DNA from: a virus
Virus record (IMG/VR): IMGVR_UViG_3300032242_001655
Coordinates: 1 to 64,000 of that record
Strand: one strand, 5' to 3'
Length of the DNA stretch: 64,000 nt
Shown in pieces: positions 35,091 to 44,275 of the stretch. A program made the translations under genes and the position numbers. The first letter of the stretch is position 1. Every line of letters begins with the position of its first letter. The notes beneath the pieces are model-generated. The model worked only from the letters and a program-made list of their open reading frames with translations. It was not told where the DNA came from and searched no databases.

Positions 35091-35151
35091 ATAAATTGTC
35101 TGTTAAGCATCTTGGCATAGCCATGTTAGCAGTAATTGGGCGATGATTCTC

Positions 35152-35180
35152 TTGACAGATTCGTCAACGGTTAGTAAAAT
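35152..35180 (+). promoter_or_regulatory. Sigma70-type promoter of the tmRNA
   Basis: TTGACA-17-TAAAAT. Confidence 0.75.
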
Positions 35181-35184
35181 GTAA

Positions 35185-35437
35185 GTTATTGCTGTATGAA
35201 GCAAAGAGAAAAGTGTTCTGGACGCGAGTTCGAATCTCGCCATCTCCACCTAAATGTATTAAGGTATATTTAGGTGGGGATGAAAATGGTTTCGACAGGG
35301 CAACAAGTAATGGCGTGGACAGCAGAGTAGGCGATGACTCTAAATCAAGCAAAAAACGTAAATGCAAACGACGAACAGTTCGCTTTAGCCGCCTAAACTC
35401 GGCTTAGGGTAGGAAATACCTCGTAACAGAAATAACC
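35185..35437 (+). ncRNA. ssrA: Circularly permuted (two-piece) tmRNA; tag ANDEQFALAA at 35364-35396
   Basis: The acceptor piece comes first (T arm GCGAG-TTCGAAT-CTCGC, CATCTCC-A-CC at 35241-35250), then an intervening hairpin, then the coding piece GGGGATG at 35276. G3-U70 pair present; CAGGGCA/TGTTCTG and GCTGT/ACAGC interpiece helices. Confidence 0.93.
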
Positions 35438-35458
35438 AGGGGCTACGGCCCCTTTCTT
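35438..35458 (+). terminator. Intrinsic terminator after the tmRNA
   Basis: AGGGGC-TACG-GCCCCT-TTCTT. Confidence 0.75.
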
Positions 35459-35484
35459 ATCAGTTTTAAAAAGGATGATTAAAA

Positions 35485-37633: not shown

Positions 37634-38431
37634 ATGAAACCAAAAACTTACCGCTCTATTTTTGTGAGTGATGTACATCTGGGTACAAAGGACTGTAAGG
37701 CAGAGGCTCTTAACAATTTCCTTAAACACAATAGTTGCGAAACGCTGTATCTTGTAGGGGATATAATAGATGCGTGGAAAATTCAACAAAATAAACTTAG
37801 GTGGAAGCAGAGCCACACTAATGTGGTTAGGCGGGTTCTTGGTCATGCTAAACGTGGTACTAGGGTTGTTTACGTGGCTGGCAATCACGATGAATTCCTG
37901 CGTCCGATGATACCGTATGGTGTGTCATTCGGACAAGTTGAAATCTGTAATCAAATAGAACACATAGGTGCTGACGGCAAGCACTATCTTGTAACACACG
38001 GAGATTTATTTGACGGTATCACTCGATTGGCTCCGTGGCTAAGTTTTTTAGGAGACAAAGCATATGATTTTATCCTTGGAGTCAATAGTAGGTTTAATTG
38101 GATCCGTCATCGTCTTGGTTTTGGCTACTGGAGCCTTAGCAAGTATCTTAAACACAGAGTCAAAAAAGCAATAGATTTCATGTTCAAGTTTGAAAGAACT
38201 ATAACAGACTATTGTAAGAAACGAGGATTCGACGGAGTAATCTGCGGACACATCCACCACGCTGAGATTAAATATATAGATAATATTGTGTATATGAATG
38301 ACGGCGATTGGGTTGAGTCTATGACGGCTCTTGTAGAGCATCACGACGGTCGCTGGGAAATAGTAACATGGACTCAAGAAAGTGACCAAAACAATTCTGA
38401 TAATAACGGACAACCTGCCGGAGCAAATTAA
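37634..38431 (+). CDS. PlcP/LpxH-like metallophosphoesterase (probable phospholipase C)
   Basis: SDVHLG, GDIID, GNHDE, HGDLFD, LGDKAY, WSLSKYLK..VK, CGHIH, NDGDWVES. Confidence 0.8.
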   Translation: MKPKTYRSIFVSDVHLGTKDCKAEALNNFLKHNSCETLYLVGDIIDAWKIQQNKLRWKQSHTNVVRRVLGHAKRGTRVVYVAGNHDEFLRPMIPYGVSFGQVEICNQIEHIGADGKHYLVTHGDLFDGITRLAPWLSFLGDKAYDFILGVNSRFNWIRHRLGFGYWSLSKYLKHRVKKAIDFMFKFERTITDYCKKRGFDGVICGHIHHAEIKYIDNIVYMNDGDWVESMTALVEHHDGRWEIVTWTQESDQNNSDNNGQPAGAN

Positions 38432-39380
38432 TGGCGTTGTCACAACTTACAAAAACATTGAGAAATGTGCGCTTCTGGACGATTATAATGTTGTGGTGCT
38501 TCATCCCGGGTGGTTCCGCTACATTAATTGTCCTGGCTACAACGAAGTCAAGATTGCCTATCCCAGGAACTTGGGCAAGAAGATTAAGGAGATCAATCCG
38601 GATTATATCCACATCGCCACAGAAGGTCCTCTTGGTCTGTGGGCTCGAAAATATCTTTCATTGGCTGGTATTAGGCACAATACCGCTTATCACACTAAGT
38701 TTCCTGAAGGGCTGAAAAAACTATTTGGCATACCAGAATCATGGACTTGGCGCTTTGTTCGTTGGTTCCATAAACACTCAGGTAAAGTTTTAACTACAAC
38801 AGACTCAATGGTACGAGAATTACAAGCACACGGATTTGACGGAGAAGTTATTCCTTGGACACGAGGTGTTGACCGTGAGATATTTTCTCCCGATTTAAGG
38901 CAAGATGTTCCTGCCAAATACCTTCTGTGTGTAAGCCGTGTTAGTAAAGAAAAGAATTTAGAAAAGTTTCTTGAAATGGACTACCCCGGATATCTTAAAA
39001 TAATGGTAGGTGATGGTCCTATGTTAGAAAAGTATAAAAAACAATATCCGGATGTATACTTTGCTGGATTTAAAACTGGGCTATCATTGGCTCGATACTA
39101 TGCTAACGCAGAAGTATTTGTATTTCCATCACAATGGGAAACATTTGGCATTGTGATGGCAGAAGCCATGGCCTGCGGCACTCCAGTTGCCGCATACCCT
39201 GTACAAGGACCGGAGGATGTTATTGATGAATGCAAGACAGGTTGTATGCGTGATAACTTAAAGGACGCTGTAGATGCTTGCCTAAAATTAGATAGAACTG
39301 AAGTTGAACGGTACAGCCATCGATGGTCGTGGGAACAAGCATGGGAAATTTTTAGGGACAACTTAGTGAGCGCAAAATGA
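38382..39380 (+). CDS. GT4 glycosyltransferase (Agt-like diacylglycerol glycosyltransferase)
   Basis: EQINGVV, HIATEGPLG, YHTKFPE, WTRGVD, RVSKEKN, ETFGIVMAEAMACGTP. Confidence 0.85.
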   Translation: MTKTILIITDNLPEQINGVVTTYKNIEKCALLDDYNVVVLHPGWFRYINCPGYNEVKIAYPRNLGKKIKEINPDYIHIATEGPLGLWARKYLSLAGIRHNTAYHTKFPEGLKKLFGIPESWTWRFVRWFHKHSGKVLTTTDSMVRELQAHGFDGEVIPWTRGVDREIFSPDLRQDVPAKYLLCVSRVSKEKNLEKFLEMDYPGYLKIMVGDGPMLEKYKKQYPDVYFAGFKTGLSLARYYANAEVFVFPSQWETFGIVMAEAMACGTPVAAYPVQGPEDVIDECKTGCMRDNLKDAVDACLKLDRTEVERYSHRWSWEQAWEIFRDNLVSAK

Positions 39381-40270
39381 ATAAGAAGATATGGATATTA
39401 CATCATGCCACAAATATAAATGGCTATGAAAACACACACCTAAAACAAACACTACTCGATTCGGGATTTGATGTTCAAGTCCTTGAACCTAAATACTTTG
39501 ATATTATTGTGAGTCGTAGTAATACACGAAGCATTAGATATAAAGGCGAGCGTATTGACATGCCTAACCTTGTTTTAAGTAGAACAGGATCGGGCACTAA
39601 CTACTTTACACTCGCTCTAATGCGTCAAATTGAAAAGTTTAACATACCTGTGATCAATGACGCAGACAGCATATCAATTGTTAGTGATAAGTTGATGACC
39701 AGTCAGGTACTGACCCGAGAAGGTTTACCTATCCCCAAGACTATATTGGTCAACGGAGATGTTGATACAGATTTAGTCGAACGTGAAATAGGATTTCCCT
39801 GTGTTGTAAAAGCCACATCGGGTAGTAAAGGTAAGACTGTACACTTATGTAAAAGTAAAAAAGAATTTCAGACACTAATGGATCTGCTGACTTCTATTGC
39901 TCTTAAGAAAGTTTTAATCATACAAGAGTTTATTGATGCGGCGCCGGGCACAGATCTACGTGTGTGGGTCATAGGTGGCAAAACTGTAGCCGCAATGAAA
40001 CGTACAGGGCCAGATGGAGACTTCCGTGCTAATATTAGTCAAGGTGGAACAGCGACACAGTTTGAAATTACTGAAGAAGTAGATTACGTTGCTCGTGAAA
40101 CTGCTCGTGCTCTTGGCCTACAGATTGCGGGTATAGATTTACTATTTGGCAAAGATGGAGTATTAGTCTGCGAAGCCAATTCCAGTCCAGGATTTGAAGG
40201 AATGGATAAATTCTGTGGTGCTGATATGAGCCAAAAGATAGCAGAGTATATCAAATTCAAATTAGGGTAA
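39377..40270 (+). CDS. RimK-family ATP-grasp (glutamate) ligase
   Basis: DKLMT...LPIPKT, GSKGK, QEFI, DLRV, FRANISQGG, GIDLL, EANSSPG. Confidence 0.9.
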   Translation: MNKKIWILHHATNINGYENTHLKQTLLDSGFDVQVLEPKYFDIIVSRSNTRSIRYKGERIDMPNLVLSRTGSGTNYFTLALMRQIEKFNIPVINDADSISIVSDKLMTSQVLTREGLPIPKTILVNGDVDTDLVEREIGFPCVVKATSGSKGKTVHLCKSKKEFQTLMDLLTSIALKKVLIIQEFIDAAPGTDLRVWVIGGKTVAAMKRTGPDGDFRANISQGGTATQFEITEEVDYVARETARALGLQIAGIDLLFGKDGVLVCEANSSPGFEGMDKFCGADMSQKIAEYIKFKLG

Positions 40271-40326
40271 TCTACCTGTAATCTACAAAAATATAAATAA
40301 ATGTACCAACTTAATAGGAGTTTCAT

Positions 40327-40383
40327 ATGAACTTATTAGCAGTATACGGACCCGGAGACGACTCCGAGGACGACGAAGAGTAA
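40327..40383 (+). CDS. 18-aa acidic micropeptide MNLLAVYGPGDDSEDDEE
   Basis: Own TATAAATA (40292-40299), AGGAG 6 nt before the ATG, downstream hairpins and a terminator. Confidence 0.6.
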   Translation: MNLLAVYGPGDDSEDDEE

Positions 40384-40428
40384 ACCGGCCACACCGATAG
40401 AGTGGATGCTGGAACTCGTAACCAGCAG

Positions 40429-40449
40429 TAGGGCTTAGGCCCTATTTTT
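40429..40449 (+). terminator. Intrinsic terminator
   Basis: TAGGGC-TTAG-GCCCTA-TTTTT. Confidence 0.75.
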
Positions 40450-40478
40450 ACGACTAAATATTATAAAGTAGGTACATA

Positions 40479-41123
40479 ATGAAAAAGACCAAAATTGCCA
40501 TTTTCCTCAATCATCCAGAATGTTCCGCACACTGCGCTGTTGGTATGTATGAAGCACTTCATCCAGATTACCATGTAAAATTTTTCAGTAAAGATCAATT
40601 CAAATCCAAAATATTTAGAGAAGCAGATGTTGTTGCCTTTCCAGGCGGCATAGGTGATAGTGATACATTTGACAAACTGGTAAGACCTAATATGGGATAT
40701 GTAATAGATCATGTCGATCGTGGTGGAAGATATTTAGGAATCTGTATGGGCGCATATTGGGCAGGGCATCACTACTTTGATATACTTGATGGCATTAGAG
40801 CAGAGCAGTATATCAAACGCCCAGGAGCAGATGTTAGACGTAGTTTTGGAACTGTGTCTAATATAACTTGGAACGGTCAACAAGAAAACATGTACTTCTA
40901 CGATGGCTGTAGTCTATTGGGCAACACAAGAAACAGCGAAGTAGTTGCTACCTATCCAAACGGAGATGCTATGGCTGTAATACAGAATCGTATAGGTGTA
41001 ATAGGATGTCATCCAGAAGCCCTACCTAGTTGGTATGATAAGAAGCATCTAAAACCTCACTGGCACGAGGCTCGTCATCATAAATTACTACACAACTTTG
41101 TTGATCAACTCATGCTACAATAA
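40479..41123 (+). CDS. Class I glutamine amidotransferase-like (BPL_N-type) protein
   Basis: FPGG, YLGICMGAY nucleophile elbow, HPE. Confidence 0.8.
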   Translation: MKKTKIAIFLNHPECSAHCAVGMYEALHPDYHVKFFSKDQFKSKIFREADVVAFPGGIGDSDTFDKLVRPNMGYVIDHVDRGGRYLGICMGAYWAGHHYFDILDGIRAEQYIKRPGADVRRSFGTVSNITWNGQQENMYFYDGCSLLGNTRNSEVVATYPNGDAMAVIQNRIGVIGCHPEALPSWYDKKHLKPHWHEARHHKLLHNFVDQLMLQ

Positions 41124-41221: not shown

Positions 41222-41686
41222 ATGTCCATAACATTAAAAAACTTAGAGGCCGCATTGGCCGGTGAGAGTCAGGCTCACATTAAATATCGCTACTTCGCAC
41301 GTATTGCTCGTGAAGAAGGTTTTGAAGAAGTTGCCCGTCACTTCGAACATACTGCTGACCAGGAACTTAAACACGCCTGGGGTCATTTGGAACTACTCAT
41401 TGGTACTCCAACTACTAAAGAATGTTTACAAAAAGCCATTGAAGGTGAAACTTATGAGTTCACTACAATGTACCCACAGTTTGAAGCAATTGCTATGAAG
41501 GAAGGCGAAGTAAAAGCCGCTGAAGAAGCAAGAGCACAGATCGCAGAATCAAAAGAACATGCCGCTGAATTTGCCGCTGTTCTTAAGAAAGCAGAAAAGC
41601 GTTTTGCCGCTTTGAGTAAGATCGAGCGCCGTCATGCTGAATCGTACCAGGCTAAACTGGATGCGGTGACATTTCCAGTAATTTAA
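41222..41686 (+). CDS. Rubrerythrin (short-chain)
   Basis: NLEAALAGESQA, QELKHA, GETYE..MY, ESKEHA; AAGGAG RBS before ATG 41222. Confidence 0.9.
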   Translation: MSITLKNLEAALAGESQAHIKYRYFARIAREEGFEEVARHFEHTADQELKHAWGHLELLIGTPTTKECLQKAIEGETYEFTTMYPQFEAIAMKEGEVKAAEEARAQIAESKEHAAEFAAVLKKAEKRFAALSKIERRHAESYQAKLDAVTFPVI

Positions 41687-41696
41687 GGAGACTATT

Positions 41697-41825
41697 ATGG
41701 AATACGTATGTGTAGTTTGTGGACATGTCCACGATGAAGAAACAGAAGGCAAATGGGATGATCTACCAGAAGATTTCCTTTGCCCAGAATGTGGTTGCGG
41801 TAAAGAAGAATACGAAGCAATGTAA
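41697..41825 (+). CDS. Rubredoxin (42 aa; not in the ORF track)
   Basis: MEYVCVVCGHVHDEETEGKWDDLPEDFLCPECGCGKEEYEAM; AAGGAG RBS. Confidence 0.9.
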   Translation: MEYVCVVCGHVHDEETEGKWDDLPEDFLCPECGCGKEEYEAM

Positions 41826-41832
41826 AATACGG

Positions 41833-41869
41833 CCCAGCCCTCTATCACTTAGTGATACGGCTGGGTTTT
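41833..41869 (+). terminator. Intrinsic terminator
   Basis: CCCAGCC...TATCAC-TTA-GTGATA...GGCTGGG-TTTT. Confidence 0.65.
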
Positions 41870-41872
41870 CTC

Positions 41873-41901
41873 TTGACTAATTAGTAATAAGTGTATATAC
41901 T
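41873..41901 (+). promoter_or_regulatory. Sigma70-type promoter (leaderless arrangement)
   Basis: TTGACT-17-TATACT, with the ATG 6 nt downstream. Confidence 0.7.
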
Positions 41902-41907
41902 AAAAAG

Positions 41908-43044
41908 ATGAATAAAGAAGAATTTATAGATAGATTATTTCACTCTCGTGCTGTGTTTGTAGATTGGGACGACACTGAATATGTTGTCAGCGACCTAATG
42001 AGTCGAGCATGGAAAGAAAGACATGACACAGTCCAGTTAACTGAAACAGTTAACCATGTAGAATACTTTGTTGAATTGATGCGAGCAGTATTAGGTGGAG
42101 GATATTTGATTCGAGGTACTAAATTGCCTGATTCAAAACCTACAGGTACATATTCATCTTGTACCAGTGGTAGTACAGGTCGTCCTAAACTAATTTCACA
42201 CAACTTAGAAAACTTTATTGCTCCTAGTCTAGCAATGAGTTCTACAGAAGCAATGGACGAATCGAGTACATTTTTAGCATATCTGCCTACCTCTACTAAT
42301 GCTGTGTTCAGCGTAGGTATGTTGCCTGCGGCAATAACTGATGGCAGGTGTGTGTTTAAAAAGTTTAACCCATTTCAAACAGTAAATGAAATACACAAAT
42401 ATCGCCCAACGCATACTACCTTACCTCCCGGAGTATATACTCCAACAAGCAAAACTAAAGAATGGAAGACAGCGGATCTTAGCAGTTTAAAATATGTATT
42501 AACGGGCAGTAATTTTACTGCTCGTGGCTTCTTTGAAGATATTAAAAGTAAAGGTGGTTGCCCATTTCATGGATACGGTACAACAGAAATGCCTGCTATT
42601 ATGAACGCTTACCGAGGCAGTGAGCAACACCTTGGACATATTTGGTATCCAGGAGCAGAATGGAAAGAAGTAGATGGAGAACTTTGGTGCCGTTGGAATC
42701 ATATGCCTTGGTGGCAAAGTGGAGACATGATAGAAGTAGATCCTATTCATGGTCCGAGAATCACAGGACGTAAAGATAATCAATTTAAATATAGAGATCA
42801 TAAAATAGTTCCCGAGAGTTATGAACTAACTGCTCGACAACATGAACTAGTAGTTGATGCTATGCTTAAACTAGAAAAGCATCTAGTGTTATATTATGAA
42901 GGAACAGCAAGTCCTGCGGAAGTAGAAGATCTGCTGTTACAACATAATTCTAAAGAAACAATGCCTAAGCAGTTTATTAAAGTAAATGCCCTACCTCGGT
43001 CTAATTTAGGAAAATTAGATCGTAAGGCTAAAATAGAAAGGTAA
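41908..43044 (+). CDS. Compact AMP-binding acyl-CoA synthetase-like enzyme
   Basis: TSGSTGRPK, GYGTTE, SGD, GRKD, LPRSNLGKLDRK. Confidence 0.8.
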   Translation: MNKEEFIDRLFHSRAVFVDWDDTEYVVSDLMSRAWKERHDTVQLTETVNHVEYFVELMRAVLGGGYLIRGTKLPDSKPTGTYSSCTSGSTGRPKLISHNLENFIAPSLAMSSTEAMDESSTFLAYLPTSTNAVFSVGMLPAAITDGRCVFKKFNPFQTVNEIHKYRPTHTTLPPGVYTPTSKTKEWKTADLSSLKYVLTGSNFTARGFFEDIKSKGGCPFHGYGTTEMPAIMNAYRGSEQHLGHIWYPGAEWKEVDGELWCRWNHMPWWQSGDMIEVDPIHGPRITGRKDNQFKYRDHKIVPESYELTARQHELVVDAMLKLEKHLVLYYEGTASPAEVEDLLLQHNSKETMPKQFIKVNALPRSNLGKLDRKAKIER

Positions 43045-43046
43045 TT

Positions 43047-43304
43047 ATGGGAAAAGGATCAAGACCAAGACCGTATAGTGTTAGCCAAGCACAATTTGGT
43101 AATAACTATGACACAATTTTTAGAAAGGAAAAAGAAATGCAAGTAAGAGTACCCGAACCAGGAAAGAAAATTGGAACCTGCGGCTGTGGCCGTAGCCCAA
43201 CAGGCGACTGCTGTGGTTGGCATGGCTTGACTGAGGACCAATATAAAGCGACCCTTGAAAAATACATGACCAACGAGCAAGACACCAAAGGCAAATCGGT
43301 TTAA
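43047..43304 (+). CDS. Small protein with a CDGSH-like Fe-S motif
   Basis: CGCGRSPTGDCCGWH; possible internal start MQVRV after AAAGGA. Confidence 0.55.
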   Translation: MGKGSRPRPYSVSQAQFGNNYDTIFRKEKEMQVRVPEPGKKIGTCGCGRSPTGDCCGWHGLTEDQYKATLEKYMTNEQDTKGKSV

Positions 43305-44275
43305 TGAAACCAATTAAGGAAATCAAGTATTACGGTCCCGTACAAATAACTTGGATCCTTAATCAAGCATGTCCTAGTCATTGCTGGTATTGTCCTGATC
43401 ACATACATCGTGGTCGCAATAACAGTTTTGATTGGGACATCTGTTCTAAGTTTTTAGATTTTCTTATAGCCAAATATCCACATGCAAACATATCGCTCAG
43501 TGGTGGTGAGCCCACAACTTGGCCTTACTTTGAACAGTTAATGGACAAAGTATTGGCAGAAGGTCGACGCATTACTGTATGTGTAAATTCGAATCTAATT
43601 AGAACGAGAGATTGGTGGGGCCGGATGGCTCCTAAGTTGTCAGGTGTGAGTGCCAGTTATCATCCTGATGTTGTAAAGACAGATGAAGAACGACAAGACT
43701 GGTTTGACAAATTAGACTTTGTTGCCTCACAGGCAGGAACTAATTTACGTATCATGATGGATCCTAAACATTGGGACCATTGTGTAGAAGTTATAGAACG
43801 TTTAAGAAACAGAACAGATTTACTCTACGGAGTTGAACCTGTTAGATTATTAAACTACTTTGAAGGCTTTCATGTTGTTAACTATGATATCGACTATACA
43901 CCTGAGCAGGATCGTAATTTAGGAAACATGAATTTTTTACCTGCTAAGATTAATCCTCCTGCCGCACAAAAGAAACAGTTTCAAGAACTTGTGGGCATTG
44001 TACATGAAGATGGTAGTAGGGCTCGATTAGAACATGTAGGTCCTCTTGTTCTAAACAAGATGAACAAGTTCAAAGGTTGGAAGTGTAATATAGGAATTGA
44101 AAGTCTGTACATTAGTCCAGATGGGCAGATTAAAAGAGGTAATTGTTTTGAAGGTGCTATAATTGGCAATGTGTTAGAACCAGAGAAAATCATTTGGGCT
44201 AACGAAGCACTTGAATGTTCGTATGATATGTGCCACTGTTTAACTGATATTCGGATATCCAAATGGAGACCTTAA
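43304..44275 (+). CDS. Radical SAM protein with SPASM/Twitch-like C-terminus
   Basis: CPSHCWYC, SGGEPT, CNIG...C, CSYDMCHC. Confidence 0.85.
   Translation: MKPIKEIKYYGPVQITWILNQACPSHCWYCPDHIHRGRNNSFDWDICSKFLDFLIAKYPHANISLSGGEPTTWPYFEQLMDKVLAEGRRITVCVNSNLIRTRDWWGRMAPKLSGVSASYHPDVVKTDEERQDWFDKLDFVASQAGTNLRIMMDPKHWDHCVEVIERLRNRTDLLYGVEPVRLLNYFEGFHVVNYDIDYTPEQDRNLGNMNFLPAKINPPAAQKKQFQELVGIVHEDGSRARLEHVGPLVLNKMNKFKGWKCNIGIESLYISPDGQIKRGNCFEGAIIGNVLEPEKIIWANEALECSYDMCHCLTDIRISKWRP

Follow-up and report, generated by a model that had tools for sequence, protein, structure and literature searches.

A phage RimK-family ligase and the Glu-ended acidic mini-protein encoded beside it, a candidate acceptor

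In a 64 kb stretch of phage DNA (referred to below as the window), which forms the first 64 kb of the 96,078-bp IMG/VR virus record IMGVR_UViG_3300032242_001655, the gene of a RimK-family ATP-grasp ligase is followed by an 18-codon micro open reading frame (micro-ORF) encoding a mini-protein with an acidic tail. Comparison with other viral loci revealed that acidic mini-ORFs whose products end in Glu are specifically and repeatedly linked to the clade to which this ligase belongs. The putative pairing of ligase and peptide is well supported by comparative genomics, and the enzyme–substrate chemistry is predicted: by analogy with ribosomal protein S6 and RimK, we consider it an evenly balanced proposition that the mini-protein is the ligase's own acceptor and is extended with glutamate at its terminal Glu. 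With a CheckV completeness of 11%, the record covers only part of the genome of a very large phage from a lake.

An earlier note on this DNA, made from the sequence alone, had proposed that the ligase, the peptide and a class I glutamine amidotransferase (GATase)-fold protein encoded downstream form a trio of writer, substrate and eraser. When the synteny of the three genes was checked across phages, as that note had suggested, the peptide recurred beside the ligase, in three types and with high specificity, whereas the GATase-like gene was unlinked; the first half of the proposal thus stood and the eraser did not.

The existence of the micro-gene and its AGGAG was confirmed by reading the sequence and by comparison with relatives whose ligases are 88% and 75% identical and which retain its frame, start codon and ribosome-binding site. 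In the window its ATG begins 56 nucleotides (nt) beyond the end of the ligase gene. The same mini-gene was found 3' of the ligase in locus L051 (positions 1065-1118; ligase 88% identical), where it has 17 codons and the end ...DEEDEE, and in L052 (1827-1889; ligase 75% identical), where it has 20 codons and the end ...DEEDAE, in both cases with AGGAG or AAGGAG 6-7 nt 5' of the ATG. In L049 (99%) the start of the mini-gene is identical and then the contig ends. Among the three sequences of this type (type A), 15, 13 and 30 differences fall on codon positions 1, 2 and 3, respectively, and the indels comprise whole codons, while public contigs show a single variant within the population, 40356 A>G, which is synonymous. 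A hairpin within the ORF (CGGAG-ACGA-CTCCG) is lost in the relatives. Because the frame, start and ribosome-binding site are kept, and because of the third-position bias and the in-frame indels, the micro-ORF is, as far as comparison of sequences can tell, a translated gene under selection as a peptide, and would represent an 18-codon functional phage gene that escapes gene callers. No other small ORF in the 96-kb record has a comparable acidic tail. Public lake metagenome contigs covering 40381-40425 have unlike upstream flanks with other short acidic ORF ends (..DSEEE stop and ..DDSDE stop); there are hints of further type A-like mini-genes in phages outside our collection.

Two longer types of acidic mini-ORF accompany relatives of the ligase. 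Type A lies 3' of the ligase with its own ribosome-binding site (window, L051 and L052). Type B, of 38-49 amino acids and with the end ...DESADAE, overlaps the ligase start in L005 and L055-L060, which belong to a sister clade (ligase ~62% identity). Type C, of 48-50 amino acids with an aromatic N-terminal half and the end ...FEETAE, is found in L069, L070 and L075-L079 (ligase ~74% identity), ending 0-11 nt 5' of the ligase; in L077 the stop codon of the peptide and the ATG of the ligase have one base in common. The three types are mutually unalignable, and each combines a strong ribosome-binding site with an acidic tail that ends in an invariant Glu. Their N-terminal halves are hydrophobic or aromatic. 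Both longer types show a third-position bias, with 130/57/310 and 190/163/361 differences at codon positions 1/2/3, and had no matches in Pfam, PHROGs or the ESM Atlas.

In order to express this linkage in numbers, an acidic mini-ORF was defined as one of 12-80 amino acids with at least five acidic residues among the last eight and Asp or Glu as the last residue. Fourteen such ORFs lay within 400 nt of the ligase on the same strand in the 83 ligase loci, compared with none in 403 kb of far flanks of ligase loci, none in the loci collected with the GATase-like gene as seed (254 kb) and one in 1.07 Mb of other viral loci, which likewise adjoins a ligase; the 96-kb record contains one, the micro-ORF. 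Independence of the micro-ORF from rimK, which the earlier note had named as a way to refute its proposal, was thus not observed, as acidic mini-ORFs occurred only beside ligases in ~1.7 Mb of comparison DNA. The type C peptides of L076 and L077 fall outside this definition and were recognised by eye. Near-copies are frequent among the loci, so that locus counts exceed independent events, and every contig is a fragment. In a quick maximum-likelihood tree, all ligases with peptides of types A, B and C fell into one clade (27 rows; Shimodaira–Hasegawa-like approximate likelihood-ratio support, SH-aLRT, 99), in which types B and C are each monophyletic and the type A subclade includes two peptide-less members.

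Two further acidic-ended families were left uncounted as partners. Type D, of 51-55 amino acids, is located in L096-L098 and L104-L106 at a distance of 244 nt upstream; since a relative is found 3 kb from the ligase in L085, a partnership with the ligase is doubtful. The wider family of 51-80 amino acids carries the motif ...RVLMPNE..Y..YDD and a long acidic end (L096:3102-3257, L104:3090-3257 and L085:4203-4445), and the ligases there are more distant. The other is a fifth family in L108/L109. In the ~62% clade, a ~105-amino-acid ORF with a signal-peptide-like start was seen between the ligase and the RNA motif described below (L005:4898-5212, L056:4398-4718), and a 431-amino-acid ORF just 5' of the acidic peptide.

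The ligase itself had been called RimK-like, and this assignment agrees with its domain layout and with scores above the Pfam and TIGR00768 cut-offs. It matched Pfam RimK (PF08443) with an E-value of 6.4e-47 and 160 bits (cut-off 21), its pre-ATP-grasp domain matched Rimk_N (PF18030) with 3.2e-11 and 43.8 bits (cut-off 26.4), and TIGR00768 gave 215.4 bits (cut-off 143.4), which places the protein among the RimK alpha-L-glutamate ligases (TIGR00768/PF08443) with a predicted activity of this kind. The closest solved structures are those of true RimK (7qyr; 5zct/4iwx) from Pseudomonas and Escherichia coli, matched over the full length with E-values of 1e-45 to 1e-47, and LysX/ArgX structures matched far worse (1e-22 to 1e-24); the ligase is nearer true RimK than LysX. 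It remained below every equivalog cut-off tried (S6 ligase, LysX, MptN and CofF), TIGR02144 for LysX giving 158.1 bits against a cut-off of 275.6. A graspetide (microviridin-type) maturase was rejected, since TIGR04187 gave 32.8 bits against a cut-off of 350 and the L051 peptide tail lacks Ser, Thr and Lys. Among cultured phages, only distant ligases of cyanophages were found (~43% identity), and a blastn search of the region against cultured phages gave no matches; genome contigs searched with the ligase yielded a single weak, unrelated match. The nearer relatives came from metagenome and IMG/VR scans.

In the explanation that we favour, the micro-ORF would be the last cistron of a phage operon, placed before a structured RNA and a terminator, and its product would be a dedicated acceptor of the ligase. 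The ligase would activate the terminal-Glu carboxylate of the peptide with ATP and add L-glutamate, probably repeatedly, resulting in a lengthened polyanionic tail. We infer here the peptide as substrate, Glu as the added residue, the alpha linkage and the role of the product. The substrate reading is favoured because of the conservation of the peptide, the three Glu-ended types, the specificity of the linkage, the single ligase clade, the likeness to RimK and the parallel with S6. The latter is so far the only protein known to undergo C-terminal poly-alpha-glutamylation (PMC11957791), and its tail is acidic and ends in Glu.

The predicted system resembles RimK and S6 (RpsF) of E. coli and Pseudomonas, where RimA and RimB act as regulators, in the Rimk_N plus RimK ATP-grasp layout and in the acidic, Glu-ended proposed acceptor. 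It differs in that the proposed acceptor is a phage-encoded mini-protein of 17-50 amino acids and that the ligase falls below the S6 equivalog cut-off. In contrast to RimABK, neither a RimA gene nor a RimB gene (RimB-type protease PF05618) was found on searching the 96-kb record and five long contigs with the ligase, all of them fragments, and the operon includes a phosphoesterase and a glycosyltransferase. A looser likeness exists to LysX/ArgX and LysW, in which a RimK-family ATP-grasp enzyme likewise acts on the terminal Glu of a small, acidic, linked protein. LysW carries a zinc ribbon and an EDWGE-type end, and receives one amino acid on the gamma-carboxyl group within a multi-enzyme pathway. 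Membership of that system was rejected, as the peptides have no Cys pairs and end differently, and the neighbours encode the phosphoesterase, a GT4 glycosyltransferase, the GATase-like protein, a rubrerythrin, a rubredoxin, an AMP-binding enzyme and a radical SAM protein. Searches of the literature returned no phage RimK described together with a linked peptide. The gene order connects a predicted protein-tail ligase with a putative lipid-remodelling operon. If the acceptor reading is true, it would add a second substrate class to RimK-family tail extension, phage-encoded and evolved or recruited in at least three forms. It would also offer a very simple system for studying RimK-type tail choice and extension, because an 18-residue synthetic peptide would suffice.

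Several observations speak against the acceptor reading. Type A is based on only three distinct sequences. The ligase scored 170.9 bits with the S6--L-glutamate ligase equivalog NF007764, well short of its cut-off of 331, and its acceptor and added residue are therefore not fixed by family score. No acidic mini-ORF adjoins the close ligases of L053, L054, L068, L071-L074, L080-L082 and L142, nor those of most clades at 41-57% identity, and in the cyanophage RimK loci (~43% identity) neither an acidic mini-ORF nor a GATase adjoins the ligase. These peptide-less ligases indicate that the linked peptide is dispensable, and they leave host S6 or free glutamate as possible targets of the ligase. 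Finally, the link of the ligase to lipid-type enzymes is unaccounted for by an acceptor role of the peptide.

This link was seen in the window as well as in relatives. The window carries, in this order, the phosphoesterase, the GT4 glycosyltransferase (GT4), the ligase, the mini-gene (37634-40383 for these genes) and the structured RNA with its terminator, the end of the phosphoesterase gene being overlapped by the GT4 start and the end of the GT4 gene by the ligase start. In L077 (2598-5395) the order is phosphoesterase, peptide, ligase and GT4, and all of them overlap. A phosphoesterase was present in 18 and a GT4 in 17 of the 28 close ligase loci. Since the phosphoesterase–GT4 pair is far commoner without the ligase, a lipid-type module seems to have taken up ligase and peptide as an accessory. 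The combination, within one operon, of an LpxH-like metallophosphoesterase with a GT4 3' of it is reminiscent of the PlcP–Agt lipid-remodelling pair of phosphate-starved bacteria (PMC4796936), a likeness that derives from weak family matches; the pair described here differs in being phage-borne, in the flanking RNA motif and in the insertion, in one clade, of ligase and mini-protein. The sequence TATAAATA (40292-40299), which the earlier note had listed among the elements of the micro-gene, has 6 occurrences in the window where 6.7 are expected; as it is not enriched, it is by itself no sign of a promoter, and the late promoter reading was dropped.

Hairpins and a terminator had been noted beyond the micro-ORF. 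They are indeed present at 40389-40449 and form part of a conserved structured RNA. The segment 40384-40450 is nearly identical in L005, where it lies 3' of a different gene. A covariance model, R1, made from a nine-copy alignment, gave 77 bits in the window. With it, the ligase loci yielded 17 copies and the 96-kb record one, and 31 further copies came from IMG/VR loci preselected by a pattern scan. An initial exact-pattern scan had returned two chance matches, which were rejected. The motif consists of P1, of 4 bp with the loop ..GAUAGA, and P2 (GCUGG/CCAGC) with the loop ..UCGUAA, followed by a variable terminator hairpin and a U run. Pair 23-37 covaries (AU 17, GC 7, UA 3, CG 1, GU 1), and in the first set eight pairs were changed on both sides, the observed score being reached by none of 500 shuffles. 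A loop–loop pair, 40401/40416, also covaries (AU 18, CG 4, GC 4), which points to a compact tertiary RNA fold. The terminator is marked by covariation and a T run in more than 40 loci, its stem varying freely while P1 and P2 are fixed; the terminator hairpin of the window was unlisted in a consensus scan. The 208-nt intergenic stretch as a whole folds well (z = -3.99).

With regard to its position, the motif lies 16-75 nt 5' of the phosphoesterase start in six loci (L155, L161, L185, L197, L209 and L223) and directly 3' of GT4 in four (L168, L173, L190 and L219); many lake-phage contigs carry it in one of these two places. In some loci the start codon comes as little as 16-17 nt after the U run, which leaves no room for a promoter, and read-through must therefore feed the gene. 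We infer a regulated attenuator, as this arrangement suggests, either a riboswitch or a put-like element. By its distribution the motif is part of the phosphoesterase–GT4 module and not of the micro-ORF. In public lake metagenomes, the motif segment was found on several times more contigs than its flanks. It had no match in Rfam; a guanidine-II hit within the ORF (E 1.6) was discarded, the ORF hairpin being lost in relatives, as was a weak uxuA hit on the terminator (E 0.09). The motif is thus a new and widespread structured RNA that is absent from Rfam.

Alternatives in which the peptide has another role have to be weighed against these data. It might be a regulator or decoy, that is, an S6-tail mimic that tunes or blocks the phage ligase, the host RimK/RimB or another reader of acidic tails, the real target of the ligase being host S6 or free glutamate; this we regard as rather unlikely. 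The peptide tails are like those of S6, and the many family ligases without a linked peptide, close ones included, would fit such a role. RimK is also known to make poly-alpha-glutamate from free Glu and to be regulated by partner proteins (PMC11957791, PMC10375531). However, in each of the three types the terminal Glu never varies, as would be expected of an end that accepts a residue. The close or overlapping placement of the genes and their equal dosage are as compatible with an enzyme–substrate pair as with a regulator, and the 96-kb record contains neither an S6 gene nor a RimB gene. A carrier role was judged quite improbable. Here the terminal Glu would be joined once, in the manner of LysX and LysW, to another amine, which might belong to an amino acid or to a lipid head group produced by the phosphoesterase and GT4. 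Consistent with this are the overlapping operon of L077, which encloses ligase and peptide, the frequency of both enzymes at close ligase loci, the hydrophobic or aromatic N-terminal halves of the peptides and the weak matches of GT4 to lipid glycosyltransferases. The ligase, however, is much nearer RimK than LysX/ArgX, the peptides have neither a zinc ribbon nor an EDWGE-type end, no LysZ/Y/J/K-type genes lie nearby, and the phosphoesterase–GT4 module is mostly found without the ligase; use of a lipid amine is not known for any RimK-family enzyme. The same neighbours could also be read in a broader sense, although we doubt that it applies: ligase and mini-protein may serve a phage lipid-remodelling operon, with the hydrophobic half of the peptide at the membrane and the ligase either building a polyglutamate tail on the peptide, in place of the negative charge that is lost with the phospholipid head groups, or joining the peptide to an amine-bearing head group, the module being switched by the two-hairpin RNA as a riboswitch or put-like antiterminator.

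The full trio, in which the amidotransferase-fold protein would trim the glutamate chain built by the ligase on the peptide, is very unlikely on the present evidence. The description of the downstream gene as one of class I GATase fold with a Cys-His-Glu triad was itself correct. Its product matched Pfam BPL_N (6.9e-12, 45.3 bits, cut-off 24.2) and remained below the cut-off of Pfam GATase (18.5 bits against 22.8); C89, H178 and E180 are invariant across 25 homologues, and an AlphaFold model with a predicted local distance difference test score (pLDDT) of 92 matched Pdx2/HisH in Foldseek with probability 1.0, template modelling (TM) scores of 0.65-0.75 and 15-17% identity. The nucleophile-elbow Cys and His-x-Glu of the class I fold are therefore both present. 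In fold and triad the protein resembles stand-alone class I amidotransferases (Pdx2/HisH, gamma-glutamyl peptidases and BPL_N), and it differs from these in its low identity to solved members, in the lack of a synthase partner nearby and in being a floating phage gene with variable neighbours. The trio is favoured by the adjacency of the three genes in the window, by the intact and invariant triad, by a gamma-glutamyl peptidase among the fold matches (rank 25), by three further loci (L071, L075 and L133) in which a GATase-like gene and the ligase are no more than 3.5 kb apart and by the order GT4, RNA motif and GATase in L202, which is that of the window. These three loci, however, are out of 82 ligase loci, and conversely a ligase was found within 4 kb in none of 36 IMG/VR loci seeded on the GATase-like gene (homologues of 46-58% identity) and in none of five long GATase-bearing contigs (82-162 kb, fragments). 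Two of the five long ligase-bearing contigs, also fragments, carry a GATase-like gene somewhere. Furthermore, no gene family recurs beside the GATase-like gene in more than nine of the 36 loci, and in the window it lies beyond the terminator. Judged by this genomic context, the GATase-like gene is an independent auxiliary gene and not a partner of the ligase. Most simply, its product would be a glutaminase or a gamma-glutamyl hydrolase. As the fold relatives, including the best matches, are glutaminase subunits, supply of glutamate from glutamine may be at least as plausible as trimming. Class I amidotransferase-type hydrolases cleave gamma-glutamyl amides. A trimming role is therefore disfavoured on chemical grounds as well, because the chains made by RimK have alpha linkages and the enzyme known to remove them is RimB, a retropepsin-like protease (PMC11957791).

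Least probable of all, and in our judgement extremely so, is that the micro-ORF is no protein gene. It would then encode a leader peptide with which an attenuator senses Asp/Glu, or would merely form, with the hairpins and terminator, a non-coding RNA. The classic layout of an attenuator does consist of a short ORF in which one codon class is frequent, then hairpins and a terminator, and then the next gene, and the intergenic stretch folds well. However, the RNA motif occurs without the micro-ORF in more than 40 loci and types B and C without an adjoining motif, inspection of the alignments by eye revealed no alternative or covarying antiterminator pairing, the terminator stem varying freely beside a fixed P1 and P2, and conservation is at the amino-acid level with synonymous change, the in-ORF hairpin being lost in relatives. 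A leader-peptide transcription attenuator was rejected on the first two of these grounds. The features on which the acceptor reading and these alternatives bear are listed in Table 1.

Table 1. Positions of the operon genes, the micro-ORF, the RNA motif and the downstream gene in the window, with copies of the motif in other loci (L numbers).
Feature	Position	Strand	Remarks
LpxH/PlcP-like metallophosphoesterase	37634..38431	+	Operon gene 1; Pfam Metallophos 9.7e-11; LpxH matches weak, below cut-off
GT4 glycosyltransferase	38382..39380	+	Pfam Glycos_transf_1 6.5e-22, Glyco_transf_4 1.1e-14; lipid glycosyltransferase matches weak
RimK-family ATP-grasp ligase, 297 amino acids	39377..40270	+	Ligase start overlaps GT4 stop by 4 nt
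Shine-Dalgarno AGGAG of micro-ORF	40316..40320	+	6-nt spacer to ATG
Micro-ORF (putative type A mini-protein), MNLLAVYGPGDDSEDDEE	40327..40383	+	18 sense codons; TAA 40381-40383; acidic tail, Glu-Glu end
Conserved structured RNA	40384..40450	+	P1 40389-40392/40402-40405; P2 40408-40412/40422-40426; terminator stem 40429-40434/40439-40444; T run 40445-40449
Class I glutamine-amidotransferase-fold protein (BPL_N family), stand-alone	40479..41123	+	Cys89-His178-Glu180 triad; beyond terminator
Motif copies elsewhere	L005:5210-5292; L074:2070-2150; L161:7104-7185 (-); L185:8203-8285		About 40 more

Outside the operon, two other regions of the window were recorded. A phage-encoded transfer-messenger RNA (tmRNA) is located at 35138-35459, with 161 bits to the Rfam beta_tmRNA model and 142 bits to the permuted tmRNA model. 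Downstream of the GATase-like gene, at 41222-44275, the window encodes a rubrerythrin, a rubredoxin, an AMP-binding (adenylating) enzyme and a radical SAM protein, an auxiliary set that is unusual in a phage.

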